A DNA stretch of 22,763 nucleotides, from contig CAZTBA010000040.1 of the NCBI GenBank assembly GCA_964611725.1, positions 1-22,763 of the forward strand, read 5' to 3'. Both the position numbers and the translations under genes were made by a program. The notes below the pieces were generated by a model that saw only the letters and a list, made by a program, of their open reading frames with translations, ran no database searches and was not told the origin of the DNA. The stretch comes from an uncultured bacterium (lineage in GTDB: Bacteria; Latescibacterota; CAZTBA01). Of the stretch, positions 265 through 16,003 are shown piece by piece. Positions within the stretch are counted from its first letter, which is position 1. Every line of letters begins with the position of its first letter.

Positions 265-1296
265 ATGGATTATAGGTCTCTTGGACGTACAGGGGTGCCA
301 GTCAGTGTGCTCTGCTTAGGTTGTATGAACTTCGGTTGGAAAACACGGGAAGCAGAGTCAATGGATATTATTGATAAGGCGATTGACAACGGCATCAATT
401 TTCTGGACACAGCCAACGTCTATTCTCGGGGTAAGAGTGAATCTATCGTAGGAAAAGCTCTGAAAAGAAACGGAAAACGGGACAACATAGTCCTGGCAAC
501 TAAAGTACATGGGCGTATGGACGATGACGATATCTTGGCTGCAGGCAATAACCGGAGGCACATTATCGACCAATGCGAATCCTCACTCAAACGACTGCAA
601 ACAGATTACATTGATCTGTATCAGATACACCGCCCGAGATCCGATACCCCAATTGATGAGACCCTGCGGGCGCTTGATGATCTGATTCGAACAGGTAAGG
701 TTCGTTATATCGGTACAAGTACTTTTCCCGCCTGGCGGGTGATTGAATCATTATGGGTGGCAAAAGAATTGGGACTGAACCGTTTTGTAAGTGAGCAACC
801 ACCTTATCACCTAATGGACCGTAGCATTGAGAGAGAATTAATTCCGATGGCACAGACTTACGGGTTGGCGATTCTGCCCTGGTCACCCTTAGCACGAGGG
901 TTTTTGAGCGGCAAGTACAAACGTGGCGAGGCAATTCCCGGGGATTCCCGACTGGAAGGTGACATGCAAGGTCCTTTCAAGAAAAGGACTCAACAACATT
1001 TCAGTGATCGGGCATATGATTTACTTGCGGTGGTGGAGAAGCTGGCGGCCGAGAAAAATTGCAGCCCGAGTCAGTTAGCACTGGCATGGTTGATCCAACA
1101 ACCGGGTGTCACGAGCGCAATTACAGGGCCACGAACCATGGCCCATCTGGATGACTGTTTGGGTGCCACACCTGTGGAAATCACCGATGATGACCGCAGC
1201 CGGTTGGATGAAGTTGCTGAACCAGAATTGGCGATTGTACCCTATTATCACGGTAGTATGATCGATTTTAAAGCACCAAGATTTAACTGGCAGTAG
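265..1296 (+). CDS. aldo/keto reductase (AKR superfamily, Tas/YajO-like NAD(P)H-dependent oxidoreductase)
   Basis: 343-aa ORF. AKR-typical N-terminus (LGRTGVPVSVLCLGCMNFG), the D-x-A-x-x-Y catalytic region (FLDTANVYSRGKSE), LYQIHRP and a C-terminal PGV(T/S)SAITGPRT-type segment. SD AAAGGAG (253-259) lies 5 nt before the ATG at 265. Confidence 0.9.
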   Translation: MDYRSLGRTGVPVSVLCLGCMNFGWKTREAESMDIIDKAIDNGINFLDTANVYSRGKSESIVGKALKRNGKRDNIVLATKVHGRMDDDDILAAGNNRRHIIDQCESSLKRLQTDYIDLYQIHRPRSDTPIDETLRALDDLIRTGKVRYIGTSTFPAWRVIESLWVAKELGLNRFVSEQPPYHLMDRSIERELIPMAQTYGLAILPWSPLARGFLSGKYKRGEAIPGDSRLEGDMQGPFKKRTQQHFSDRAYDLLAVVEKLAAEKNCSPSQLALAWLIQQPGVTSAITGPRTMAHLDDCLGATPVEITDDDRSRLDEVAEPELAIVPYYHGSMIDFKAPRFNWQ

Positions 1297-2557: not shown

Positions 2558-3757
2558 ATGTCATGGTTGCTCAAAGATCCACCCGATTTCAGCAAACATA
2601 ATGAGGAAGTAGCAGCACTATGGGATTCCTATCACAAAGGCCAGCCCAAGCGCGTACCGGTATCCATTCGCGGCAGTATACGCAACTTGATCCAGAACCC
2701 GGACTTGAACACAACCGGGTACACATTCAAAGATTTCTTTACGGATCCGGAGGCTCAGATTCAGTGCCAGTTGTCCTTCCAGAAGTGGTGCCGATACCAT
2801 GTGCTCTGCGACGAAGAGATGGGACCGCCGAGGGATGGCTGGCCGCTCTGCGTTGATTTCCAGAATTCCTATGACGCCGGGTGGTTCGGCTGTCCCCTGT
2901 ACTACGATGGCAACGCCGTGCCCGACACGATCGAGATTCTCAAGGAGAACAAGCACAAGCTCTACGACATGGAATGTCCGGATCTGCTGCATGGGGGGCT
3001 GATGAACCGAGCGGTGGAATTCTATGAGTACATGCATCAACGGTGCAGGAATCTGGAGTTTGAGAACCTGCCGGTACTCCCACCACGTACCATTCCCGCG
3101 GAAAGCTGCGACGGGCCGCTGGATGCGGCCTACAAGCTGCGTGGGGCAGCCGAAGTCTGCATGGACATGCTCACTGATCCGAACTACTACCATGATCTAA
3201 TGGAGTTCATCACCGAATCTCTCATCCGACGCATGAAGACGGTCCGCGAATGGCGCTGGGAACACTTTCTCGATTCCCCGGACAAGGGATGCTTCCGACA
3301 GCCCAACTTCGTCTTCGCCGATGATGCGGTAGTGTTACTCTCGATGGATCAATACCGAGAGTTTGTCTTCCCATACCACAGGCGCTTTGTGGAGGAGTTC
3401 AGCGACGGCGGGCGGACCAGCGTTCATATGTGCGGGGATGCTACACGATTTTTCCGGTTCCTTCGCGACCATCTCAACGTGTACAGTTTCGACACCGGTT
3501 TTCCCGTGGACCACGGGTGGCTGCGAAAGGAGCTCGGACCGGAGGTCCAGATTTCCGGGGGACCATCGGTCATGCTGGTCAAAGACGGACCGATTTCAGC
3601 GATTCGGAATCGGGTTCGGGACATCTGTGAGTCGGGTATTATGGAGGGGGGCAGGTTCATCCTGATCGCTGCGAACAACATGGCTCCATGCACGCCCGTG
3701 GAGCATATTGTTGCAATGTATGATGCCGCAAAGCAATTCGGCCGCTACGATTCCTAG
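2558..3757 (+). CDS. uroporphyrinogen decarboxylase (URO-D)/MtaA-CmuA-like family protein, paralog 1
   Basis: 399-aa ORF. SD GAGGAG (2544-2549) lies 8 nt before the ATG. It has URO-D-family length and layout, and a C-terminal 'SVHMCGD' matching the family's (I/V)H(I/M)CG motif followed by a TIM-barrel tail. It is paralogous in motif order to the next gene. Confidence 0.7.
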   Translation: MSWLLKDPPDFSKHNEEVAALWDSYHKGQPKRVPVSIRGSIRNLIQNPDLNTTGYTFKDFFTDPEAQIQCQLSFQKWCRYHVLCDEEMGPPRDGWPLCVDFQNSYDAGWFGCPLYYDGNAVPDTIEILKENKHKLYDMECPDLLHGGLMNRAVEFYEYMHQRCRNLEFENLPVLPPRTIPAESCDGPLDAAYKLRGAAEVCMDMLTDPNYYHDLMEFITESLIRRMKTVREWRWEHFLDSPDKGCFRQPNFVFADDAVVLLSMDQYREFVFPYHRRFVEEFSDGGRTSVHMCGDATRFFRFLRDHLNVYSFDTGFPVDHGWLRKELGPEVQISGGPSVMLVKDGPISAIRNRVRDICESGIMEGGRFILIAANNMAPCTPVEHIVAMYDAAKQFGRYDS

Positions 3758-3870: not shown

Positions 3871-4989
3871 ATGCTGACTCCCCGAGAAAACATACTGGAG
3901 GTCTTCCGGCAAGGGACTCCTGAGTGGATTCCACTGGTGACCCATGTGGACCCATACAACCAGCCAAACCGTACAGGTATGGATCCGGCATTGACTGAAG
4001 CCCTGGGAACCGTGCACTGGCATGACGAGAGTACCATCCGCCTCTCACGTTTTCTGGGCCTGGACATCATGGACTACGTCGGCGGACCGGTGCGTATTCG
4101 CAATGAGAACGTCACGGTCGAGGTCACCCAGGAAGGAGACGATACCACCCAAATCTGGCACACTCCGCAGGGCACACTGACCCAGGTGCAAAGACGTTGC
4201 CGGGATGACGGCACGTCCTACGTTGTCGAACACCTCATCAAGAACGCCTCCGACCTGCCGGCGCTGGCAGCCATATTCGAGGACCAAACCCTGATCCTCG
4301 ATACGGACGCAGTGGCCGCAATGCGGAAGCGCCAGGAACTTATCGGCAACGACGGTATACTGCAGTGCTCCATGCCGGGAACGCCGATGGGCATGATGTA
4401 CCGTGTCTACAGCGGAGTAGAGACCCTGGTGTATCTCTACCACGATGCCCCACAGGCACTGGGAGATCTGTTCACGGTCATGGAGACGAACTACCAAAAA
4501 CGGTTGAAAATCAGCCTGGAGGCCCCAGCGGATGTCCACGTGGGCATGGACGACACCTCCACAACGATTATTTCACCGGCCATGTTTGAAGCATGCAACC
4601 TCGAGCTGACGAACCAGAGGGCGGACATATGCCACGAAGTCGGTAAACTCTACTTTCATCACTCTTGCGGCCTCATCCGTGACCTGCTCCCGCTTTATCG
4701 ACGAACCAGAATGGATGCCGTACATGCTTTCACAGAACCTCCCATTGGCAACGTGACGATCGTAGACGGCCGCAAGCTACTGGGCGACAGGATCGCCATA
4801 CGCGGCAATGTGGCTGCGATGGCCGAGGAATCCTGGGAGCCGGAAGCTATGCGGAAGAGCGTCCGCGAGCTCTTCAGGGGCATCACCCCAAGGGATCACG
4901 TTGCGCTCAGTATAACTGCCTACCCCCACAGGACGATTGACCAGATGAAGTTGGTCGTTGAAGCATGTCGAATGTATCGAGACATCTGA
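3871..4989 (+). CDS. uroporphyrinogen decarboxylase (URO-D)/MtaA-CmuA-like family protein, paralog 2
   Basis: 372-aa ORF. The N-terminus MLTPRENILEVFRQGTPEWIPL is the classic URO-D/MtaA opening (MTPRERLLAAL..G...DRVP-like), and 'FHHSCG' corresponds to the (I/V)HxCG motif. Weak SD GGAGAG lies 3 nt before the ATG. Confidence 0.75.
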   Translation: MLTPRENILEVFRQGTPEWIPLVTHVDPYNQPNRTGMDPALTEALGTVHWHDESTIRLSRFLGLDIMDYVGGPVRIRNENVTVEVTQEGDDTTQIWHTPQGTLTQVQRRCRDDGTSYVVEHLIKNASDLPALAAIFEDQTLILDTDAVAAMRKRQELIGNDGILQCSMPGTPMGMMYRVYSGVETLVYLYHDAPQALGDLFTVMETNYQKRLKISLEAPADVHVGMDDTSTTIISPAMFEACNLELTNQRADICHEVGKLYFHHSCGLIRDLLPLYRRTRMDAVHAFTEPPIGNVTIVDGRKLLGDRIAIRGNVAAMAEESWEPEAMRKSVRELFRGITPRDHVALSITAYPHRTIDQMKLVVEACRMYRDI

Positions 4990-5202: not shown

Positions 5203-7200
5203 ATGAATGAAACACACCTTATCCCTGTCACAAAGCCCGAAGATATGCTGAAGAGCCGAGAATGGGCGGGACGCTTCCTCTCCGGTCCCGCCGACCTTCC
5301 CGTCTCTTTCATGTTCGATGGAAGGACCATAGGCGGCATCCCGAAAGACTGGCAACCGGTTTCAACCAGACGCCGCATCGACGCCAATATCTTCGAGACG
5401 GTTTTTGAAGGCAGGGACGCCGGGACCGGCTTGAATGTGCGGGTCGAGTGCACGGAGTATCAGGACTACCCGGTTGTGGAATGGGTGGCATGGCTCACCA
5501 ACAAGGGCAATGAAGCCACACCGGTGATCCGTGACATCCTCGCAATGGACGGAACGTTCAATGGTTCTTCGCCCATTCTGTATCACTGCAATGGCGACTT
5601 CTACAGTGAGGAAGGATACACACCTCAAGAGACTCCCCTACGCGCGGGAGCCACACTCGACTTTGCCCCCAACGGGGGCCGTCCCTGTGACGGCGCATTC
5701 CCCTACTACCGAATCATGTTCGAGGACTGCGGTCTATCCATGGCCATCGGCTGGCCCGGGCAGTGGGCGGCAACTTTCAAAGGGCTTGCGGACGGCGTAC
5801 ACGTTCAGGTGGGTCAGGAAAAGACGAATCTTCGGCTCATGCCGGGTGAAAGCATCCGCACGCCGCGAATGACCGTTCTGTCCTGGACAGGGGACGTTTC
5901 AAGAGCGGTAAACCTGTGGCGGCGGTGGTATATTGCCCACATCCTTCCAAGGCCCAACGGTCAACCGATGAAACCGCTGCTGGCCTGCGAGGGCCCTGGT
6001 GACGGCGTGGAATTCACAGCAGCCACCGAAGAGAATCAACTCCTGCATATCGAGATGGCCAAACAGCGTGGAATTCCATTTGACGTCTGGTGGATCGATG
6101 CCGGCTGGTATCCCTGCTACGACGAAAATCATGAAAGAACATGGCCGGTAACAGGCACATGGGAGCCCGACCCCGAAAGGTTTCCCAACGGTCTGAAACC
6201 GGTATCCGACTGCGCAGCCCGAAACGGCGCGGACCTGTTGATCTGGTTTGAGCCGGAAAGAGTACGCCTCGGCACAAAACTCGATGTGGAACACCCGGAA
6301 TGGCTTCTGAGGATGGGTGAGAGCGATAACAGTCTGTTGAATCTGGGCAACCCGGAATGCCGTCAACGGCTTACCGATCACGTGTGCAGGCTGATCAAGG
6401 ACAACGGCATAAAGATCTACAGACAGGATCACAACTTCGAGCCGCTGGAATATTGGCGCAGGAACGAGGACCCGGACCGTCAGGGCATGAATGAGAACCT
6501 GCATGTTCAGGGCTACCTTCAGTACTGGGACGACCTGCTGGCACGAAATCCCGGCCTGTGGCTCGATTCATGCGCGAGCGGAGGACGTCGCAATGACCTC
6601 GAAACCATGCGCCGTTCCGTGCCGCTGCACTATACCGACTACGGGTACGGGGATCATCCGGTGAAGCTGGCATTCCACCACACACTGTATGCGTGGCTAC
6701 CTTATTTCAAGGAATCCGCGCTCTCCTGGGATATCGGCGGAAGGGCGAGGTTCGCCCACCAGGTAGACAGCTTCTCCTACCACTGCGGCATGGCTCCCCT
6801 GTTTTCTACAGCTCTCGACATCCGCCGTGACGACTACGACTATGCCCTTGCCAAGAGAATGATCGACATCTGGCGCCAGGCATCCGATCTGATGCTGTAC
6901 GGCGACTACTATCCCCTTACGCCGTTCCACCGCAGCGCTGAGAAATGGGTCATCTGGCAGTTTGACTGCCCGGAAAAGGGCTGTGGGCTCGTCCAGGGAA
7001 TCCGTCTTCCGGAATCGCCGGAAGAGACCATCACAGTCCATCCGAAGGGTATTCGCTCGGATTCAACGTACTTCTTCGAGAACGCTGAAACTGGTGAGAC
7101 AAGGGACATTTCGGGAGCGGATCTGCTCCACGGTGATTTCACGTTCGCGCTTCCGAAGCGCAGTGGGGCCATCTGGTTCTATCGAAAGAACCCCGAATAG
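5203..7200 (+). CDS. glycoside hydrolase, clan GH-D (GH36/melibiase-like alpha-galactosidase family)
   Basis: 665-aa ORF. SD AAGGGGA lies 5 nt before the ATG. Three motifs match GH36 from memory: 'FDVWWIDAGWY' (like LDDGWF), 'LLIWFEPERV' (like GLWFEPEMV) and 'IKIYRQDHN ... LDSCASGGRRND' (like KWDMNR ... CSSGGGRFD). There is no N-terminal signal peptide. Confidence 0.65.
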   Translation: MNETHLIPVTKPEDMLKSREWAGRFLSGPADLPVSFMFDGRTIGGIPKDWQPVSTRRRIDANIFETVFEGRDAGTGLNVRVECTEYQDYPVVEWVAWLTNKGNEATPVIRDILAMDGTFNGSSPILYHCNGDFYSEEGYTPQETPLRAGATLDFAPNGGRPCDGAFPYYRIMFEDCGLSMAIGWPGQWAATFKGLADGVHVQVGQEKTNLRLMPGESIRTPRMTVLSWTGDVSRAVNLWRRWYIAHILPRPNGQPMKPLLACEGPGDGVEFTAATEENQLLHIEMAKQRGIPFDVWWIDAGWYPCYDENHERTWPVTGTWEPDPERFPNGLKPVSDCAARNGADLLIWFEPERVRLGTKLDVEHPEWLLRMGESDNSLLNLGNPECRQRLTDHVCRLIKDNGIKIYRQDHNFEPLEYWRRNEDPDRQGMNENLHVQGYLQYWDDLLARNPGLWLDSCASGGRRNDLETMRRSVPLHYTDYGYGDHPVKLAFHHTLYAWLPYFKESALSWDIGGRARFAHQVDSFSYHCGMAPLFSTALDIRRDDYDYALAKRMIDIWRQASDLMLYGDYYPLTPFHRSAEKWVIWQFDCPEKGCGLVQGIRLPESPEETITVHPKGIRSDSTYFFENAETGETRDISGADLLHGDFTFALPKRSGAIWFYRKNPE

Positions 7201-7264
7201 AGGACTGAAACCGACACCGAGCGGTACCGCTGACTTCCATTCCGTTACAGAGAGGAGGTGCGTC

Positions 7265-8734
7265 GTGAAGTACATTACCGAACCGGAGAAACGCGTGCCT
7301 GTAGCGCTCGATGCGGACGTTGTCGTAGCCGGCGCCGGCGTGAGCGGCGTGATGGCGGCCATCGCGTCGGCAAGGCACGGTGCGAAGACGGCAATCGTAG
7401 ATCGATTCGGCTCCGTCGGCGGGAATACCGGCCCCGGCTTCATCGCGGGAGGCGGCATGCTGCCCGGCAGCCCACACCCGGACGCCGGGTACTCCCGCAC
7501 GGTGTTTCCCGGGCTGTACGGCATAGCACGGGAGCTGATCGAGCGATACGCCGTGGCGGGCGGGAACGGATTGCAGCCGTACACGAAGCCGCCGTCAAAC
7601 TACGCATACAACGCACACCTCGCATCGTACGTCGCGCAGACGATGCTCGAAGAGAGCGGCGTTCGCGTCATGCTCTCAACTCGTATCGCCGATCCGATCA
7701 TGGATGGAACGAACGTGTGCGGGCTTTTCGTGGAGGACAAGTCGGGCCGACGCGCCGTGACGGCACGGGTGGTTATCGACGCAACCGGCGAGGCGGACGT
7801 GGCGCGACGCGCGGGCGCGCCGGTGCTCTATCCGAAGGACAGCTACCACGAGATCGACGGTCATGCGCCGACGGGCATGGGCATTTACTTCCTCATCGGT
7901 GGCGTGGATTCGGACCGGTACGAGTTGGCGATGGGCGGCGTCGAGGTCTCCGACGAGGATGTCGAATGGGGCATCGCGACGCTGGGCGAGAAACACGCCG
8001 GGGCGTACCGCGCGTTTCTGCCGTTCATGCGGAAGGCGAGCGACCGCGGCGACCTGAATCTGCGCTACACGCACGTCGATCTCGACGGTTCCCGCGTCGC
8101 GCTGTTAGCACAGATGCCATGCAGGAGCGGTACACCGAATTCCTGCCACGGGCGGCTCCAGCCGGAACGGGTCGAGGCGATCGATGCGTCGAACGCCGAC
8201 CACATCTCCGCGCTGGAGATCGGCGTGAGGATGCACCTTATCGAGATGGCGCGGTTCTGGAAGCATTACGTGCCGGGGTTCGAGAATTCGTGCGTGGTCA
8301 ACATCGCGCCGTTCCTCGGGTCGCGCGGCGGGCCGTGCATCGAAGGAGAGTACACGCTGACCATGGACGACTGCAAGGCAGCGCGCCGCTTCGACGACGT
8401 CACGTATCTCTACGGGCAATGGATCGCGCTAAAGCATACGTGCGATCAGGGAAAGTGCGAATGGGCGGATGTTCCCTACCGGGTGATGGTGCCGAAGAGG
8501 ATCGACGGACTGCTCGCGACGGGTCGCTGTGCGTCGTGCATCCCCGACACGCTCCTGAGGAATCGCATGGCGATCAAGGTCCTCGGCGAGGCGACCGGGA
8601 CGGCGGCGGCGCTCGCGGCGAAGAACGGCGTTCGGCCGCGTGATCTCGATAGACGGGAGCTTCAGCGGACGCTTCTCGGCGCGGGGTTTTACCTTGGAGA
8701 CATCGAGCGGCTGAAGCAATTGGGTTTGATCTGA
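7265..8734 (+). CDS. FAD-dependent oxidoreductase (PF12831-like, FAD_oxidored family)
   Basis: The long ORF 6962..8734 overlaps the GH36 3' end at its 5' side. The functional start is most likely GTG 7265, 6 nt after a perfect AGGAGG (7253-7258). A Rossmann GxGxxG (VVVAGAGVSGVMAAIA) lies 15 aa after that start, and the C-terminal ...CASCIPDTLLRNRMAIKVLGEATGTAAALAA segment is typical of this family. Coding is very GC-rich: the alternate frame 7258..8643 is an Arg-rich (RRRRERR...) pseudo-ORF. Confidence 0.8.
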   Translation: MKYITEPEKRVPVALDADVVVAGAGVSGVMAAIASARHGAKTAIVDRFGSVGGNTGPGFIAGGGMLPGSPHPDAGYSRTVFPGLYGIARELIERYAVAGGNGLQPYTKPPSNYAYNAHLASYVAQTMLEESGVRVMLSTRIADPIMDGTNVCGLFVEDKSGRRAVTARVVIDATGEADVARRAGAPVLYPKDSYHEIDGHAPTGMGIYFLIGGVDSDRYELAMGGVEVSDEDVEWGIATLGEKHAGAYRAFLPFMRKASDRGDLNLRYTHVDLDGSRVALLAQMPCRSGTPNSCHGRLQPERVEAIDASNADHISALEIGVRMHLIEMARFWKHYVPGFENSCVVNIAPFLGSRGGPCIEGEYTLTMDDCKAARRFDDVTYLYGQWIALKHTCDQGKCEWADVPYRVMVPKRIDGLLATGRCASCIPDTLLRNRMAIKVLGEATGTAAALAAKNGVRPRDLDRRELQRTLLGAGFYLGDIERLKQLGLI

Positions 8735-8749
8735 ATGCGTTCAGATCAA
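8726..8749. terminator. perfect 10-bp-stem hairpin between convergent genes (terminator-like, no U-tract)
   Basis: TTGATCTGAA-TGCG-TTCAGATCAA overlaps the TGA stop (8732-8734) of the FAD oxidoreductase and lies in the 106-bp gap before the convergent YdiJ-like gene's stop at 8841. No T-run is present on either strand. Confidence 0.2.
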
Positions 8750-8840
8750 AGGCATGAACGAGGAGGTTCGCCGTGACCGCAGAACTCGTCCACCCCGAAC
8801 TCGCCGAACACATCCGCTCCATGCCGCTCGGGTCGGATAC

Positions 8841-11800
8841 TTACTGACCCTGCATAACAGACGGTTCCGACTCCGGCTCTTTTCCTCTCAAATAATCAAT
8901 CAGAGGCTGTGTAACTAAGGGAACTACGTCACCGATCATGTGTGGCATCAGGTTATCCATAACCTTCGGCATGAGATCCGGCATCTGCTCCTTCATATAG
9001 TCAGGCATAGGTATGCGTTCACCCACGCGATCCAACATGACCGGCAGTACCTTGGGCATCATCCCGGGAAGCAGCTTCGGAAACAGAACGGGGAACATGG
9101 GCTTCATGAGATTTAGCGCCCCCGGAATCTTACCCATGAACCGCATCATCGGTCCCATCTTAAAGGGCATTGCACCAACCAGCTCCGGCCACATCGTGCC
9201 CATAAGATCCGCAAAACCCTGCGGAGTCATAAGGTCTATCATGGCCTCGAAAACAGCCCACTGCCTCCGCACTTCCGGGTTGGGATCAGGAAACTCATAT
9301 CCCAATGCCGATGACGCGAAGCGAGCGAGATCCACCACTTCTACAGGTATCTGCTTCTTGTCGGCTGAGACGCGGAGTTGAAATTCACAGCAGGGGCAGA
9401 GCGCCAGCACCTTCTCCGCTCCCGCCTCCAGCGCCTCGTCCAAACGAATACTCCCGACATCGGCAGCTACAGGCGGCTCTTTGATGAGTGTCAGGACACT
9501 CCCGCAGCAGTGTGCCTCCTCCCTGTTGTGGCTCATTTCCACAAACTCCACATTCGGGATAGCCTGGATAACTTCGCGTGGCGGTTCATATACGCCCGAT
9601 ACGCGGCCGATGTGGCAGGAGTCGTGCCAGGTCACCTTGGCCGGTTGCTGGTCGTTCTCCGGGAAACTGAACTCTCCCGATCGGATCTTCTCCGCTATTA
9701 CCTCACTGTAATGCTTCGCCTTGATACCATAGTCTATCCCCAGTTTCTCCGCCCAAACCGGGTAGACATGCCGCCACATCATATCGCAGGCAGGGCAAGA
9801 CGTGATGACGGTATCGGCGCCGCTCTCCTTGACAGCCTGGATGTTCTTCCTTATCGTTTCCTCAAATACACCCCACTTGCCCGCTACCAGCATCGGGGTC
9901 CCACAACAGTTTTCCGTTTCTCCCAGGTAGGTGAAGTCCACACCGGCGGCATCAAGCAAACGGACACTGGCCATGCCGATATCGTGCTCAACGTAGCTGG
10001 CGGTACATCCGGCGAAGTAGACATTCTCCGCCCCGCGGCCCGGTCCATGCTTCTCCTTGAGATCCTGCGGGAACCAGGCAGTGCGATCCTTGCGGTAGCC
10101 GGCCCAGATGTCACCCTCCTTCTGAAGCGCTGCCGCCATCATCTCAAACGGCGGAAAGGTCATCATCTTTTTGTCGTCAATGAGCTGACCTCGCAGCTTC
10201 ATCCACGACGGCTCAATCGGAAGAGCAGCGGAGCAACGCAGGTTACACAGCTCACAGGTAGTGCACACCAGGATGGAGTCAACCATGAACTGATCCCATT
10301 TCTCCCTGCCTTCCATATATTCCCTGAGCCAGTACCACTTCCCCCTCGGGGTCTGACTCTCCCAACCTCTACCGTAGAACTGGTCGCACTCCTCGATACA
10401 GTAGCCGCACTGAGAGCAGCTATAGGCATACCAGGCCACATCCGCAGGAATGTCGCGTATAGGTTTCTCAGGTCTCTCGCCGATCGAAGTGATGACATAG
10501 TTGCCAAAAGGTCGGATGAGGGGCTCAAAGACACCGGCAAGGCTCAATGCTGCACCGACGGGACCTCCTCCGATAACCTTGCCGGGGTTCAGCATGCCCC
10601 TGGGATCGACTTGCGCTCTGAACTTCGCCAATCGTCCGGCCCGTTCCTCTCCCAGAACCTCCTTAGCTTTCTTCGCAAAGTAGAGTCCCGTAGAATAGGG
10701 CCTGCCACCATACTTCTCAGCGATCTTCGTGATGGTCAAGACCAGGCTGAAGACCAGATTGTAGCTGAACTTGCGCTGATCGCTGGGGATGAAACCCAGT
10801 ATCACAGCCTCAGCCTTACCACCGGCGCCTTCACGTATGACGACACCTTCTTTGACAACAGGCTGATCGACCTTCCTCTCGATCTCTGTCATCACATCAC
10901 CCAGAGAGGAAAGGGGCACCACCACTTCCGCTGGCACCAGACTGGGGCCCAGTCGCTTGACGACCATCAGCTTAAAGCGGTGTTCCCACTCGTGCCGGGC
11001 GATGCGATCGCTCAGGATCTCAGCTTCACAGGGTCTGAGAAGCTTCGGGAGCCTACCCATCACTGCCTGGCGATCCTTGCTGCGAAAGGCAATGATGATG
11101 ATGTAGGATGCAGGCAACAGCACCCGCTCTTCAACCGGATGGCCGTAATGCTCCATCAGGGGAGACAGGTTCTTAAGCTCTGCCATCCGCGGGTTGATGA
11201 AGACCAGTGACCAGATGGGAAGTCCCTCATCCACCATCGACTGCACCAGCTCCTGCATATCATGGGCATCGGGACAGCCGATGGCAACCACATCCATATC
11301 ATCCAGAGGCTGAACCCGAATGGTCACATCACTGATCAGTCCGGTTGTCCCTTCGGCATCAGCTATCAACTCCAGATCCTCACCGCTGAACTCCCTGACG
11401 CTCCCATCAGGCAACACCGCCCGGGCACTCACTACATTGTCCCGGAACCATCCGGACTCGTAAGAGCCTATTCCGGCACCTCCCTGAGCCAGCCAACCCC
11501 CAACTGTGGATGACGGGTAACTGGTAGGGTAAAGCCGCAAGGTCAGCCCATGTCTGCCAAGCTCCCGGTCAAGCTTCTCCCACACAACACCGGCCTGCAC
11601 TCTGGCCGTCTGTGCCTCAGCGTCAACGCTGATCACCCGGTTCATGTGGTAGAAATCGACTACTATGCCGTTCTTTATCGGCAAAACTCCCCCGTAGCCC
11701 GAGGATGCTTTGCCTCGCGGTGTGAGCTTTAAATCGTTATCTGCTGCCCAGCGGACCAGTTCAACCAGTTCCTCCTCGGTCTCGGGCTGGACGACAGCAT

Positions 11801-11951
11801 CCGGAGTTGTGTCACCGACAAGGGGTTTGATGAGTCCAGGCATGGCAGCGATATCGTGACCGTAGAGTTTTCGCTCAGTTTCATTAAAGGATACACGCTT
11901 GCCAAATTTCTCCTCAAGATATGACCTACGCTTAGAATTTACCTTTCCCAT
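8841..11951 (-). CDS. YdiJ-like fused FAD-linked oxidase / Fe-S oxidoreductase (FAD_binding_4 + FAD-oxidase_C + 2x[4Fe-4S] + 2xCCG domains) with C-terminal Met/Pro-rich extension
   Basis: 1036-aa ORF. SD AGGAGG lies 4 nt before the ATG at 11951. The N-terminus is a PCMH-type FAD-binding domain (GlcD/D-lactate-DH-like). Two ferredoxin Cys motifs follow (YSCSQCGYCIEEC and VCTTCELCNLRC), then two CCG-type Cys-rich domains (FAGCTASY...CCGTP and WHDSCH...CCGS..CPCC) as in GlcF/LutA/HdrD. Overall size and architecture resemble E. coli YdiJ (~1018 aa). The last ~150 aa carry about 22 Met and about 23 Pro. Confidence 0.85.
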   Translation of the reverse strand: MGKVNSKRRSYLEEKFGKRVSFNETERKLYGHDIAAMPGLIKPLVGDTTPDAVVQPETEEELVELVRWAADNDLKLTPRGKASSGYGGVLPIKNGIVVDFYHMNRVISVDAEAQTARVQAGVVWEKLDRELGRHGLTLRLYPTSYPSSTVGGWLAQGGAGIGSYESGWFRDNVVSARAVLPDGSVREFSGEDLELIADAEGTTGLISDVTIRVQPLDDMDVVAIGCPDAHDMQELVQSMVDEGLPIWSLVFINPRMAELKNLSPLMEHYGHPVEERVLLPASYIIIIAFRSKDRQAVMGRLPKLLRPCEAEILSDRIARHEWEHRFKLMVVKRLGPSLVPAEVVVPLSSLGDVMTEIERKVDQPVVKEGVVIREGAGGKAEAVILGFIPSDQRKFSYNLVFSLVLTITKIAEKYGGRPYSTGLYFAKKAKEVLGEERAGRLAKFRAQVDPRGMLNPGKVIGGGPVGAALSLAGVFEPLIRPFGNYVITSIGERPEKPIRDIPADVAWYAYSCSQCGYCIEECDQFYGRGWESQTPRGKWYWLREYMEGREKWDQFMVDSILVCTTCELCNLRCSAALPIEPSWMKLRGQLIDDKKMMTFPPFEMMAAALQKEGDIWAGYRKDRTAWFPQDLKEKHGPGRGAENVYFAGCTASYVEHDIGMASVRLLDAAGVDFTYLGETENCCGTPMLVAGKWGVFEETIRKNIQAVKESGADTVITSCPACDMMWRHVYPVWAEKLGIDYGIKAKHYSEVIAEKIRSGEFSFPENDQQPAKVTWHDSCHIGRVSGVYEPPREVIQAIPNVEFVEMSHNREEAHCCGSVLTLIKEPPVAADVGSIRLDEALEAGAEKVLALCPCCEFQLRVSADKKQIPVEVVDLARFASSALGYEFPDPNPEVRRQWAVFEAMIDLMTPQGFADLMGTMWPELVGAMPFKMGPMMRFMGKIPGALNLMKPMFPVLFPKLLPGMMPKVLPVMLDRVGERIPMPDYMKEQMPDLMPKVMDNLMPHMIGDVVPLVTQPLIDYLRGKEPESEPSVMQGQ

Positions 11952-12079
11952 TGAACCTCCTAACTCTAACAGGGAATGTCACCTTCATAGTACAAACCTA
12001 ATATTTGCTTTGTTGTCGAATTCACTAAATTCGGATACAACACCAGACGATTACACAATTAAGATTTTCCGAAAAAACA

Positions 12080-12961
12080 TTAATCAAAAACTGAAAAATA
12101 GTGTTCGAAGAAACGTTCGACATCCACTCCTAAGGCAACCTGATGTTTTGCTTCCGATACACCCGATTTCCAATATGTCATCCCCTTTACCCTTTCACTC
12201 AGGAGCTCTACTTCTACATTACCCTTCTTAAAGGTGCAGATACTGTCATCAAAGATAGTTGCTGCCGCTAAAGGATCATGAAATGTGATAATGTTCCCTT
12301 CCTGAAACCAGATCTCGGCAAAGTCGAGCACGGGACGGAGCAGGTCCGACTGGAATTTCTCCTTAACCTGATCCGCGCCCATTACCACCCGGAGGGTCAC
12401 ATCCAGGCCGACGGAACGGTGGATGGCGACATCGGCTCCGTATACGATAGCTGTCGCGTGGGGATCACAACAGGCGTTCCATTCGATGGGGCCAACCCTC
12501 GGCATACGATTGGTAAAAACCCCGCACATCATCACCAGACCCTTTAAGAGGGATGGTATTTCCCGGTCGACACTGAAAAGAAGCCCCACGTTGGTCAGTG
12601 GGCCGATAGTCAGAAGGATGACTTCCCCTGGATTCTCGCGTATAGTCCGCCTTAGAAATTCAACGGCCTCACCTCTGGGGAACTTCTCATCGTGATCCCA
12701 CTTTTTCACAGCCGCTGCCTGCGGAGCACAGCTTTGTTTCTGGGGAACAAGAAGCGGGATCTCGACCCCTGGAAAAATCGGGATCTGCTTGCCGGCAATC
12801 TTACACAGAACGCTTGCCATCATCGCCCGTTTGTCCGCTTCACCGGTGACCGTTGTAATGCCAAGCAATTCGCACTCGGGCTGAGCCAGTAGATAAGCCA
12901 GACAGACAGCGTCATCAATATCGGAGCCGATGTCTGTATCCAGAAGAACCTTTGTCGGCAT
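12080..12961 (-). CDS. inosine-uridine-preferring nucleoside hydrolase (IUNH family)
   Basis: Canonical N-terminal Ca-binding aspartate cluster [22 protein letters not shown] chose the ATG at 12961 (MPTKV...) because AGAGAGGA lies 7 nt upstream. The ORF-track start at 13039 is a GTG with no SD and would add 26 non-family residues. Confidence 0.85.
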
Positions 12962-13113
12962 TGTGAAATCCTCTCTATCATTGTGATTTTGGCTTTTCAT
13001 ACTATCGAGGGTTTTCAGCGGTTTTAGAAGAAAAATCACACACTACAGCTAAGGCTATATATATAATATATCGCGGCAATTGTCAAGTCCCAACGTATTC
13101 CCTAAAAGAAAAC

Positions 13114-13141
13114 TTGACATATACTTACCATTTTTTATATT
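13114..13141 (+). promoter_or_regulatory. candidate sigma70-type promoter for the histidine kinase gene (TTGACA-16 nt-TATATT)
   Basis: Exact TTGACA at 13114-13119 and TATATT at 13136-13141 with a 16-nt spacer sit in an AT-rich stretch ~65 nt upstream of the ATG at 13207. TTGTCAAG (13080-13087) is a near-perfect inverted repeat of the -35 region (CTTGACA) and is a possible operator. Confidence 0.3.
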
Positions 13142-13206
13142 GATTTTCCAGATTCAGTGAAATTTTTAGGATTTCCAGCAAAGACCTATTTTCATGAGGG
13201 GAAAAA

Positions 13207-15933
13207 ATGAAGGAAAAAAACAAAACAAAAAAGGAACTGATAAGTGAACTGATGGAATTGCGCCAGCGGGTTGCTGAATTGGAAACATCTGAAGCAAAGC
13301 GCAAGCTGGCGCAGGAGGATCTGCGCAGCTCGGAACCGCAATATCGTATGATGATCGATTCCATGGGCGATGCGATTCATATGATCGATGGAAATTTGCG
13401 AATAATCCTTTTCAATAAATCTTTCATGAAGTGGAACGAAGAGCTGGGCCTGGAGACGGATGTAATTGGCAAGGCAATCCACAAGGTCTTTCCCTTTTTG
13501 CCACAGGAAGTTTACGAGGAGTATCACAGGGTATTCAAGACAGGCCAGCTTCTCATCACCGAAGAATGTACGCAAATCGGAGGTAAGGAATTTATCACGC
13601 AGACACGAAAGATCCCGGTATTCGGGAACGGTAAGGTTACCAGAGTTATCACTGTGATACGCGATATCACCGAGCAGCAGAGATCGGAGGAGACATTAAG
13701 TGACAGCGAAAGGCGATACCGGGACCTTTTTGAAAACGCCAACGATATAATATATACACACGATCTTGAAGGAAACATAACCTCAGCAAACAGGGCTGCC
13801 CTGAGCACCTTTGGATATTCCTTAGAGGAAGCCCTGAAGACGAATATAGCCCAGTTGGTGGATCAGGAATATCTGCCTCTGGCCTGGGAAAATACAAAAC
13901 GAAAGTTAGATACAGGGAAACCAACGGCACCCTATGAGCTCCTGTGCCATTCCAGATATGGGAAGGAGATCTGGCTGGAGGTCAACACGCGTTTGATCAA
14001 GGAAGATGGCAGGCCAGTAGCAGTGGAAGGGATTGGGCGAGATGTAACTGAGCGTAAGAAAGCAGAACAAGAGCTTCGGGAGAGCGAAGAATTCAATTTC
14101 GCATTGTTCCATTACAACCCTATCGAAACTGTAGTCGTGGATCGCGAAGGAAGGGTTATCAGATCCAACATGGCAAAAAGGCAGTCAGGCGATAGATTAC
14201 CCAATATCGGAGACTTGATGTATAAGGATTATGCCGGAAAACACGATACCGATATGTTTTCCGAATTGATGGAGTGCATTGGATCAGGCGAGACAAAAAG
14301 TTTCCCTGAACTAAGATATAATGACAGATTTCTATTCATAACGATAGCCCCCTTTCCAAAGGGAGCTATTATAACGTCCAAAGATATCACCGAGTACAAG
14401 CACGCAAAGGAGGCACTCCAGAAGAGCGAGGAAAAATACCGAACCATCTTTGAAACTACCCCGGCTGCGACGTTAATAATTGAGGAAGACACAACGATAT
14501 CTATGGTAAACACAGAATTTGAGAAACTCTTCAGATATTCCAAGGAGGAAACGGAAGGTAAGAAAAGCTGGACTGAGCTCGTCAAGGAAGACAGCCTGGA
14601 GATGACGGAGGAATACCATCGTTTGCGGAGGATTGACCCGGATTCTGCTCCGAAAAACTACGAATGCCAGGTCATTAACAAACAGGGTGATGTTAAGGAT
14701 GTCTTTTTGACGGTTGCAATGATTCCGGGGACAAAGAAGAGTGTGGCATCCGCCTTGGATATCACCGAGCGCAAACAGTTGGGAGAACAGCTTCTCCACG
14801 CCCAGAAGATGGAAGCCGTGGGCCGCCTTGCAGGAGGGGTAGCACACGATTTCAACAACCTTCTAACGGTGATAAACGGATATGCTGAACTTGCACGGGC
14901 AAAGCTTCACAAGGAAAATCCCTTGTATAACTACGTCGAGACAATTAAAAGAGCCGGAGAGAAGGCAGCAAACCTCACGCGACAACTCCTTGCTTTTTCC
15001 CGCCATCAGATAGTTAAACCTCAGGTAATCGATCTCAACTCTGTCACCCTCGATATGGATAAGATGCTCCGCCGCCTCATAGGTGAGGATATAGAGCTTG
15101 TAATAATTCCAAGTAAGGATCTCGGCTCCGTGAAGGCCGACCCCGGGCAGATTGAACAGGCCCTAATCAACCTTATTGTGAACTCCCGTGATGCCATGCC
15201 TGATGGCGGAAAGATAACGATTGAGACAGCCAATGTCGACCTTGAGGAGGTTCACAGCTCAAGTCACGACAGTATTGAGCCCAGGTGTTATGTCATGATC
15301 TCGGTAAGTGATACAGGAATTGGCATGAGTGATGAGGTTAAGTCCCACCTTTTCGAACCTTTTTTCACCACCAAGGAAGTTGACAAAGGAACAGGGCTTG
15401 GTCTTGCCACTGTTTACGGTATAGTGAAACAGAGCGAGGGGTATATTTCCGTTGACAGTGAGGAAGGTAAGGGGACAATATTTAGGATCTATCTGCCATG
15501 TATCGAAGAGACCGCGGATTCTTCTATTGATCGTGATGAGAAAGGCTATCTTCCAAGAGGTGACGAGACAGTCCTCCTTGTTGAGGATGAGCCAAATGTC
15601 CGTGAGTTTGTGAGCAAGATTTTGGAAGATCAAGGCTACACTGTCCTTGAGGCTTCAAACGGAATTGAGGCCCTGAATATTGCGAGAGAACATGATGGGT
15701 ATATCCATCTTCTTCTGACAGATATTGTTATGCCCAAGATAGGAGGTCAGCAGCTTGCTGAGGCAGTGAGGGGGTCTCGTCCTAAAATCAAGGTGTTTTA
15801 TGTTTCAGGTTACACAGACGAGAGCATAATCCGTCAGGAGCTTGTCGACTCCAAAACAGGATTCCTTCAGAAACCCTTCACGGTCTCGTCTTTGATCCGT
15901 AAGACGAGGGAGATACTGGACAAGGAATTCTGA
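13207..15933 (+). CDS. cytoplasmic multi-PAS hybrid sensor histidine kinase (coiled coil, ~4 PAS, HisKA, HATPase_c, C-terminal REC)
   Basis: 908-aa ORF. SD GAGGGGA lies 5 nt before the ATG. H-box '[17 protein letters not shown]', then N/G1/G2 boxes ([31 protein letters not shown]). The C-terminal receiver carries LLVEDE and LLLTDIVMP (phospho-Asp), with K in the FLQKPF motif. There are no hydrophobic transmembrane segments. It is AT-richer than its neighbours. Confidence 0.9.
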
Positions 15934-16003
15934 GTTTGTTTCAGGCTATAATTCCAGATAGCCCTTCCAGTCCGGCTTCTGGCCGGGGCAATCTCATATC
16001 GAA

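Follow-up and report, generated by a model that had tools for sequence, protein, structure and literature searches.

The question raised by this locus is why a large oxidoreductase should end in about 150 residues rich in methionine and proline, and what such an end could do for the enzyme. The window, that is the whole stretch of 22,763 nucleotides analysed here (contig CAZTBA010000040.1 of assembly GCA_964611725.1, from an uncultured bacterium of the Latescibacterota), contains at 8841..11951 on the minus strand an open reading frame (ORF) of 1036 codons plus stop; it encodes a predicted cytoplasmic enzyme of an uncharacterised family, with a flavin adenine dinucleotide (FAD) module, a ferredoxin-like 2×[4Fe-4S] domain and two CCG domains, followed by the Met/Pro-rich segment. 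This segment is an unannotated, previously undescribed domain on an enzyme of known type, and the reading favoured here, held at a probability of about 0.4, is that it is a pliable, Met-lined hydrophobic module for docking or capping at the acceptor side of the enzyme.

Regarding its composition, the segment covers residues 888-1036 (8844-9290, minus strand) and has 22 Met and 23 Pro in 149 residues, while the remaining 887 residues of the protein have 24 and 51, respectively; the enrichment with respect to the rest of the protein exceeds chance, with a binomial P of 1.3e-10 for Met and of 1.5e-5 for Pro. The first-pass annotation, which had reported a segment of this kind and of ~150 residues, was right on this point, and the three Met-rich strings that it quoted were located at residues 928-941, 948-973, and 981-1005. 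No tandem repeat was detected at the DNA level in the region of the tail, so that the segment is not a recent repeat expansion.

As for its conservation, the family alignment included 48 full-length members with 42% mean column identity, among them proteins from Thermincola potens (ortholog ADG82086.1), Thermanaeromonas toyohensis, Phosphitispora, and Dehalogenimonas. All orthologs have the tail and keep its Met and Pro positions column by column, which answers the check proposed when the segment was first noticed. Four residues, W898, P954, P958, and M982, are invariant; D889, F901, M917, P922, M928, P929, P943, M949, and M964 are at least 90% conserved, as are P966, P970, P981, P983, M986, P991, P995, M998, and P1003, and about 20 Met/Pro columns besides the invariant ones are conserved at 85-90% or more. 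Overall, Pro reaches at least 70% in 15 columns and Met is the majority residue in 25. The tail is aligned nearly without gaps, length variation being confined to one short loop, and its mean identity to the query (49%) is close to that of the whole protein (50%) and higher than that of the FAD-oxidase_C domain (42%); its column conservation persists down to 27-35% identity. The variable C-terminal end, residues 1023-1036 (8844..8885), is replaced by gaps in most homologs.

The Met content of the tail is also kept, with 22-32 Met and 15-23 Pro in 47 of the 48 members; the remaining one, from Dehalogenimonas sp. (P0387, 1027 aa), has 19 Pro but 9 Met, and is the sole such member seen. When a Met-majority column does not have Met, the replacement is nearly always aliphatic or aromatic: L, V, F, or I occupy 249 of the 295 non-Met cells (gaps included), and the counts are L135, V41, F39, I34, and A16. 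No conserved His or Cys was found in the tails, which have 0-4 His and 0-3 Cys each and mostly no Cys at all. Their net charge varies from -5 to +4, with an average of about -1.

The structure predicted with AlphaFold2 for the full-length protein had a predicted local distance difference test (pLDDT) score of 90.1 and a predicted template modelling (pTM) score of 0.87; the tail, taken in blocks of 10 residues, had pLDDT values of 82-91, while residues 1028-1036 were below 50. When the tail was modelled alone, from 25 sequences, pLDDT was 88.3 and pTM 0.78, and the six helices of the full model were reproduced, so that in prediction it is an autonomous domain. Residues 888-1022 (8886..9290) probably form, on the basis of these models, a conserved all-helical domain capable of autonomous folding, made of four short helices and a hairpin of two helices of ~36 residues. 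The short helices, defined with DSSP on the models, are at 891-907, 910-918, 921-926, and 932-940 (9132..9281), and contain the invariant W898 along with the near-invariant F901, M917, P922, M928, and P929; the long ones are helix 5 (residues 945-979; 9015..9119), recognised also from composition and alignment, and helix 6 (residues 984-1021; 8889..9002), supported by the alignment and by its likeness to helix 5. The first description of the segment as a low-complexity or flexible tail thus does not hold, given that the Met and Pro positions are conserved by column and that the model is a confident helical domain. On disorder, the expectation was correct only for residues 1023-1036, which look disordered both from pLDDT and from the gaps in the homologs, and failed for residues 888-1022, which are predicted to be ordered.

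The two long helices follow an unusual rule: both are reiterated tetrads of the type hydrophobic-hydrophobic-Pro-polar, in the form [hydrophobic-hydrophobic-Pro-(K/R/G)] in helix 5. Pro residues of helix 5 are at 951, 954, 958, 962, 966, and 970; those of helix 6 are at 991, 995, 1003, and 1011, with 1007 and 1015 added in the family consensus and the near-invariant P983 just upstream. The polar position of the tetrad is mainly Lys/Arg in helix 5 and mainly Asp/Glu in helix 6, and helix 6 also has a ladder of Met residues (986/990/994/998/1002) that extends from the invariant M982 just upstream. Pro, Met, and the hydrophobic residues all recur with a periodicity of 3.8-4.0 residues, and about three quarters of the positions in the two helices are apolar and conserved. 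Met and Pro are coupled: just before the 15 conserved Pro columns, Met takes 49% of cases and Leu 26%, and the residue that follows the Pro is polar; MP dipeptides are 7.2 per tail, against 3.6 expected from composition, and 12 of the 25 Met-majority columns are at position -1 or -2 of a conserved Pro. The profiles of helices 5 and 6 are alike (hhalign probability 96%, a value that the shared composition may inflate), which suggests, at the level of sequence, that the two helices arose by internal duplication.

Searches for relatives of the domain led to a single enzyme family. The tail used alone as a query (E ≤ 0.001) retrieved 483 proteins, and the best 120, for which identities are stated, had 75-87% identity, with annotations that include Zixibacteria, Dehalococcoidia, and Spirochaetales. 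When 1.84 billion cluster representatives were searched exhaustively with HMMER, only 226 matched. Whenever the protein was long enough, the match fell at its extreme C-terminus (e.g., 887-1026 of 1030, 888-1014 of 1030, 876-1014 of 1020, and 883-1023 of 1027), and the shorter matches were fragments or pieces composed of CCG plus tail, with the domain always C-terminal to the CCG. As judged from these sequences, the domain is a hallmark of one oxidoreductase family with the order FAD, 2×[4Fe-4S], and 2×CCG. One apparent stand-alone tail protein (P0034, 180 aa) turned out to be the downstream piece of a gene split by a frameshift. This occurs in two Zixibacteria loci (L003, 3459-6543, and L004, 2939-6023), in which the gene is divided into an 855-aa piece and an overlapping tail piece of 180 aa; the two assemblies may share one sample, and the frameshift is a possible sequencing error. 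Downstream of the split gene there are a flavodoxin-like gene, an LPG_synthase_C gene, an HMA P-type ATPase, and a YHS protein.

Outside this family the domain has no relatives in the databases consulted. Pfam and NCBIfam have zero families for it, the search of 25 tails against Pfam at E ≤ 10 returned only noise (G3P_antiterm, DUF6918, Lact-deh-memb, and HEAT-type families), and the profile search of the Protein Data Bank (PDB) gave only weak matches to HEAT proteins, with E ≥ 0.02; no structural relative in the PDB emerged from either sequence profile or fold search. The non-significant matches were nearly all to HEAT/ARM scaffolds, namely CAND1, Mot1, PP2A-A, and importin-9 in the PDB, and mTOR_dom, HEAT_EZ, and PSME4 in Pfam, and probably reflect the common helix-start pattern hydrophobic-hydrophobic-Pro-x-hydrophobic. 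A HEAT/ARM repeat identity was discarded, the matches being weak (E 0.02-0.2 for CAND1, Mot1, PP2A-A, mTOR_dom, and HEAT_EZ) and the domain having one hairpin and no solenoid. Literature searches, limited to a restricted set of full texts, found no published study of the family.

The enzyme that bears the domain is of a recognisable type. Its N-terminal half has FAD_binding_4 (residues 50-188; Pfam E 3e-41) and FAD-oxidase_C (residues 220-459; E 9.5e-9), which together form a module similar to D-2-hydroxyacid dehydrogenases (10575..11804, minus strand); Foldseek with the full model matched D-lactate dehydrogenase, D-2-hydroxyglutarate dehydrogenase, and AGPS (alkyl-DHAP synthase) with E from 1e-24 to 1e-19, and the TM-score normalised on the target was 0.77-0.84 for the first two. 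With these two domains and the matching fold of the model, this half qualifies as a FAD-linked 2-hydroxyacid dehydrogenase of the VAO/PCMH type. The ferredoxin-like 2×[4Fe-4S] domain (Fer4_17 in Pfam) follows at residues 509-577 (10221..10427), and its cysteines, 512/515/518/522 and 563/566/569/573, are invariant in the family alignment. The two CCG domains (residues about 643-730 and 773-860; 9372..10025) are recognised by PF02754 in two stretches (E 2.6e-32) and belong to this family by virtue of two complete CX31-39CCX35-36CXXC motifs, with C649/C682/C683/C719/C722 in the first and C779/C815/C816/C852/C855 in the second invariant in the 48 sequences; C854 is also present in the second motif. 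The tail begins directly after the second CCG, and the order of the domains proposed at first reading is the one given by Pfam. No signal peptide or hydrophobic leader was found, the N-terminus leading directly into the FAD domain, and no transmembrane helix was found in the 1036 residues, for which the highest Kyte-Doolittle mean over 19 residues is 1.34. Because it has neither a leader nor a membrane segment, the enzyme, with its C-terminal domain, is predicted from sequence to be cytoplasmic.

The same arrangement of a ferredoxin-like 2×[4Fe-4S] domain and two CCG domains with the full motif is found in the enzymes of HdrD/HdrB type LdhH, TfrB, GlpC, GlcF, DsrK, HmcF, and TmcB. The best NCBIfam matches of the CCG half were LdhH (E 4e-41) and TfrB (E 4e-39), GlpC being the next named one; LdhH scored 141 bits against a cut-off of 800, and the other named CCG families were likewise far under their cut-offs, so that on sequence criteria the protein belongs to none of the seven. 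Their profiles stop ~5-30 positions past the second CCG, at residues 860-877 of the protein in the window (872-877 for LdhH, TfrB, and GlpC), and for this reason these families are taken to lack the ~135-residue Met/Pro domain. The domain is, as had been supposed, an unusual architectural addition, absent from YdiJ and from proteins of the GlcF/GlpC/TfrB/LdhH/HmcF/TmcB type.

The comparison with Escherichia coli YdiJ (D-2-hydroxyglutarate dehydrogenase, NF049975), implied by the label "YdiJ-like" given to the protein, stands for the overall plan, since YdiJ has a similar size (1018 aa), an N-terminal half of FAD-linked oxidase type, and a C-terminal half with Fe-S clusters. It fails for the rest: only the FAD-binding domain resembles YdiJ (34% identity over 140 aa by BLASTP), and the NF049975 model gave 72.2 bits against a cut-off of 1350, on residues 48-209 only, which excludes membership over the full length. 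YdiJ has no Pfam CCG match, and the last 150 residues of it have 2 Met and 5 Pro. Among the relatives, only mycobacterial EtfD (PDB 9ojn) also continues at length past the CCG; the module with Fe-S and two CCG domains (E 4e-23) is common to both proteins. In EtfD this extension is of ~30 kDa and disordered in the cryo-electron microscopy structure, and the protein has five transmembrane helices (PMC13083937); in contrast, the protein in the window has no transmembrane segment, and its extension, which shows no sequence relationship to that of EtfD, is predicted to be folded.

The reading as a docking or capping module starts from the observation that the domain is joined to the CCG end of the protein, where electrons leave or enter the iron-sulfur chain. 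It also follows from the constant fusion after the CCG, the large share of conserved apolar positions in the two long helices, the lack of a conserved partner gene, and the fact that other CCG enzymes rely on separate subunits. The domain would hold a hydrophobic redox partner against the CCG clusters, this being a lipophilic carrier, such as menaquinone at the surface of the membrane, or an amphipathic segment of a partner protein, and it would replace the separate membrane or partner subunit used by the other CCG enzymes. Met would work as a flexible, unbranched hydrophobic residue and not as a metal ligand, and would give a deformable, sulfur-rich apolar surface; since half of the Met columns adjoin Pro, it may also be the residue best tolerated beside Pro in these helices. 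Points in favor are the position-specific conservation, the confident prediction, the periodicity, the excess of MP dipeptides, the aliphatic replacements, the fixed placement, and the pattern of charges.

Two groups of proteins may serve as analogues for a domain of this type. In the M domain of SRP54/Ffh and in calmodulin many Met side chains form a pliable apolar surface, and these helical proteins are possible working analogues of the tail; no relationship of the tail to either was detected in sequence or fold, and Pro regularly spaced inside the helices is a feature of the tail and not of the M domain or of calmodulin. The second group includes the C-terminal helices of NDH-2 and SQR, the N-terminal hairpin of class 2 DHODH, and the membrane-binding domain of Dld (PF09330), terminal amphipathic elements that could be functional analogues: the helices of the monotopic quinone reductases adjoin the last redox center, tether an enzyme of soluble type to the membrane, and line the path of the quinone. 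The tail has an amphipathic periodicity and Lys/Arg at the polar position of helix 5, but no homology to these anchors (PF09330 matched 5 of 25 sequences with E ≥ 0.16), no net positive charge, and few aromatic residues.

Several facts weigh against the docking reading. That the tail touches the CCG clusters is an assumption drawn from their adjacency in sequence and from the high pTM of the model, and not something seen. Against the membrane or a quinone as the ligand, the tail is near neutral, whereas peripheral membrane anchors are usually basic; its Met-rich, aromatic-poor helices would partition weakly to the bilayer interface, according to a sum made by hand with the Wimley-White scale. 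In at least one lineage, that of Dehalogenimonas P0387, the Met richness is dispensable, judging from its sequence; this protein is a single data point, from a group in which quinones are reported to be absent. Indeed, Dehalococcoidia were reported not to make quinones (PMC5736913), and since many carriers of the domain belong to this class, a quinone cannot be the partner in every case. Beside the gene, in about 80 loci, no protein that could be a partner is conserved. Finally, covariation analysis of limited power (mutual information with average product correction, 240 sequences, effective number of sequences 71) gave mainly clade signals, and neither a partner domain nor a contact between tail and body was resolved.

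Among the other explanations, the one that survives best is that the domain is a structural or oligomerisation element, in which two subunits would join their hairpins into a four-helix bundle, or the hairpin would buttress the CCG module, with no direct role in acceptor binding. This is possible but doubtful. It agrees with the compact and confident helical domain that AlphaFold2 produces even in isolation, with covariation being strongest inside the tail itself, and with the prevalence of HEAT/ARM-type helical scaffolds among the weak, non-significant matches; moreover, many FAD-linked oxidases are dimers. The difficulty is that the conserved apolar positions, about three quarters of helices 5 and 6, seem too many for the interface of a simple hairpin, and that related CCG enzymes function without such a domain.

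A more far-reaching proposal is that the domain is a fold type not previously described, in which pre-proline Met enables long helices with Pro at every fourth residue, and whose Met-lined interior or groove is the last station of the electron path, binding a lipophilic or aromatic carrier or else a soft metal or cofactor; the protein would then be a self-contained dehydrogenase, often under control of an ArsR-type regulator and spread horizontally between bacterial phyla and archaea. Taken with all of its parts, this proposal is unlikely.

The first-pass annotation had offered three functions, namely metal binding or sensing, docking to a quinone or to the membrane, and an interaction arm, and metal binding is the one that fares worst. 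As a soft-metal appendage, for Cu(I) or Ag(I), the tail would use its MxxM/MxxxM motifs, and the high number of Met in 47 of the 48 members and the i,i+4 Met ladder of helix 6 are what such a role would call for; helical Met/His motifs bind Ag(I) in SilE. Genomic context adds a regulator of ArsR/SmtB type, a family rich in metal sensors, directly upstream of the gene in 17 of 43 loci, and, near one Zixibacteria gene, the HMA P-type ATPase, which is of copper type, and the YHS protein. A Cu(I)/Ag(I) site is nonetheless unlikely, because Met is replaced almost exclusively by L, V, F, and I, no His or Cys co-ligand is conserved, the Dehalogenimonas ortholog keeps the Pro skeleton with few Met, and the protein is cytoplasmic, with Met-only Cu(I) sites being typical of periplasmic or extracellular proteins. 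In addition, adjacency to Pro explains half of the Met columns, the ArsR proteins match a generic model only, and neighbors related to metal transport do not recur. The comparison with CusF, CopC/PcoC, the Ctr1 ectodomain, and SilE leads to the same result: density of Met and MxxM/MxxxM spacing are in common, whereas those proteins are extracytoplasmic and have His/Trp/Cys co-ligands or disordered motifs, and the tail is cytoplasmic and predicted to be folded, with Met interchangeable with aliphatic residues. In particular, the tail lacks two traits of the Met-motif Cu(I)/Ag(I) proteins, the extracytoplasmic location and the retention of ligand Met as Met, His, or Cys.

Far less probable still is an extension of the electron wire by a bound cofactor, for instance a heme b with two Met axial ligands as in bacterioferritin. 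A helical bundle placed after the last Fe-S module, with M982, M917, M928, M949, M964, M986, and M998 invariant or nearly so, would be suited to it; however, the domain resembles no heme protein in sequence or fold, no His is conserved, and aliphatic residues can replace Met at most columns. That the tail is a neutral low-complexity expansion or a disordered linker with no specific function can be regarded as refuted, since its biased composition is accompanied by column conservation down to the lowest identities, by 75-88% tail identity across many phyla, and by a nearly gap-free alignment with no DNA repeats and high pLDDT (82-95 over the two models), so that only residues 1023-1036 fit such a description, and the retention of the tail and of its positions in the orthologs is the very outcome that had been indicated as decisive against it.

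The C-terminal domain is of interest for the module to which it is attached: through CCG/HdrD-like modules electrons enter or leave many enzymes of anaerobic respiration and fermentation, and this family has, exactly at that end, a conserved extra domain of ~135 residues with a regular Met/Pro pattern and no database relatives. If its ligand were identified, the electron acceptor of this very common but unannotated oxidoreductase would probably come to light, and with it the role of the enzyme in physiology; it would also become clear whether a helix with Pro at each fourth position is a structural motif in its own right.

Regarding its distribution, a scan of one genome per species found close relatives of the tail in at least 473 species genomes, and the best 80 loci, from which the details are taken, had 75-88% identity in the tail. 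The carriers among these 80 are Ignavibacteria, Dehalococcoidales, Anaerolineae, Thermoflexales, Zixibacteria, Coatesbacteria, Desulfomonilia, and Syntrophaceae, together with Thermodesulfobacteriota, Gemmatimonadota, Thermoleophilia, WOR-3, Eisenbacteria, and the archaeon Ca. Methanoperedens; Chloroflexota and Actinomycetota are also represented, and the carriers are anaerobes of sediment, groundwater, and peat. The 54 full-length genes in these loci have 68-79% identity to the protein of the window, and the full-length homologs from the protein search have 78-82%. Such identity (68-82%) across distant phyla and an archaeon suggests, as far as sequences can tell, strong constraint and wide horizontal transfer of a function carried by a single gene. 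For Ca. Methanoperedens the full-length identity is 74-76%, and L050 and L053 are notable among the loci L007-L086.

Neighborhood clustering of the about 80 loci revealed no conserved membrane subunit, electron transfer flavoprotein, or other redox partner gene. The sole recurrent neighbor is the ArsR/SmtB-type regulator mentioned above, which immediately precedes the gene in the same orientation in 25 loci (the fraction of 17 out of 43 refers to loci with enough upstream DNA) and is assigned only through a generic subfamily model. These regulators have 110-150 residues (e.g., L033 2991-3323, L012 2993-3328, and L027 1063-1410); they conserve a Cys ahead of a DPxRL motif, and most have another in the last helix; none is present in the window analysed here. 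Sporadic neighbors are WrbA-like FMN_red flavoproteins (~10 loci), FadL/TodX outer-membrane transporters (7), and LPG_synthase_C proteins (6), too inconsistent for an operon partner. A scan for promoters and terminators gave no informative signal.

In the window, the gene stands alone, flanked by a FAD_oxidored gene that is convergent with it and, upstream, by a nucleoside hydrolase gene of its own orientation. The ORF of the former (6962-8734, plus strand) overlaps the end of a melibiase-like gene (5203-7200, plus strand), and since the FAD_oxidored match begins only at residue 119, translation probably starts at an internal codon near 7270-7320. The guanine-plus-cytosine content drops from 0.57-0.64 (7000-11500) to 0.44-0.49 (12000-16000) at a boundary upstream of the oxidoreductase gene, in a region with the nucleoside hydrolase gene and a gene for a hybrid PAS histidine kinase/response regulator; this boundary may be a junction between segments of different origins. 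Finally, two adjacent genes on the plus strand (2558-3757 and 3871-4989) encode proteins with partial URO-D (uroporphyrinogen decarboxylase-like) domains, and the pair adjoins an aldo/keto reductase gene and glycoside-hydrolase-like genes.

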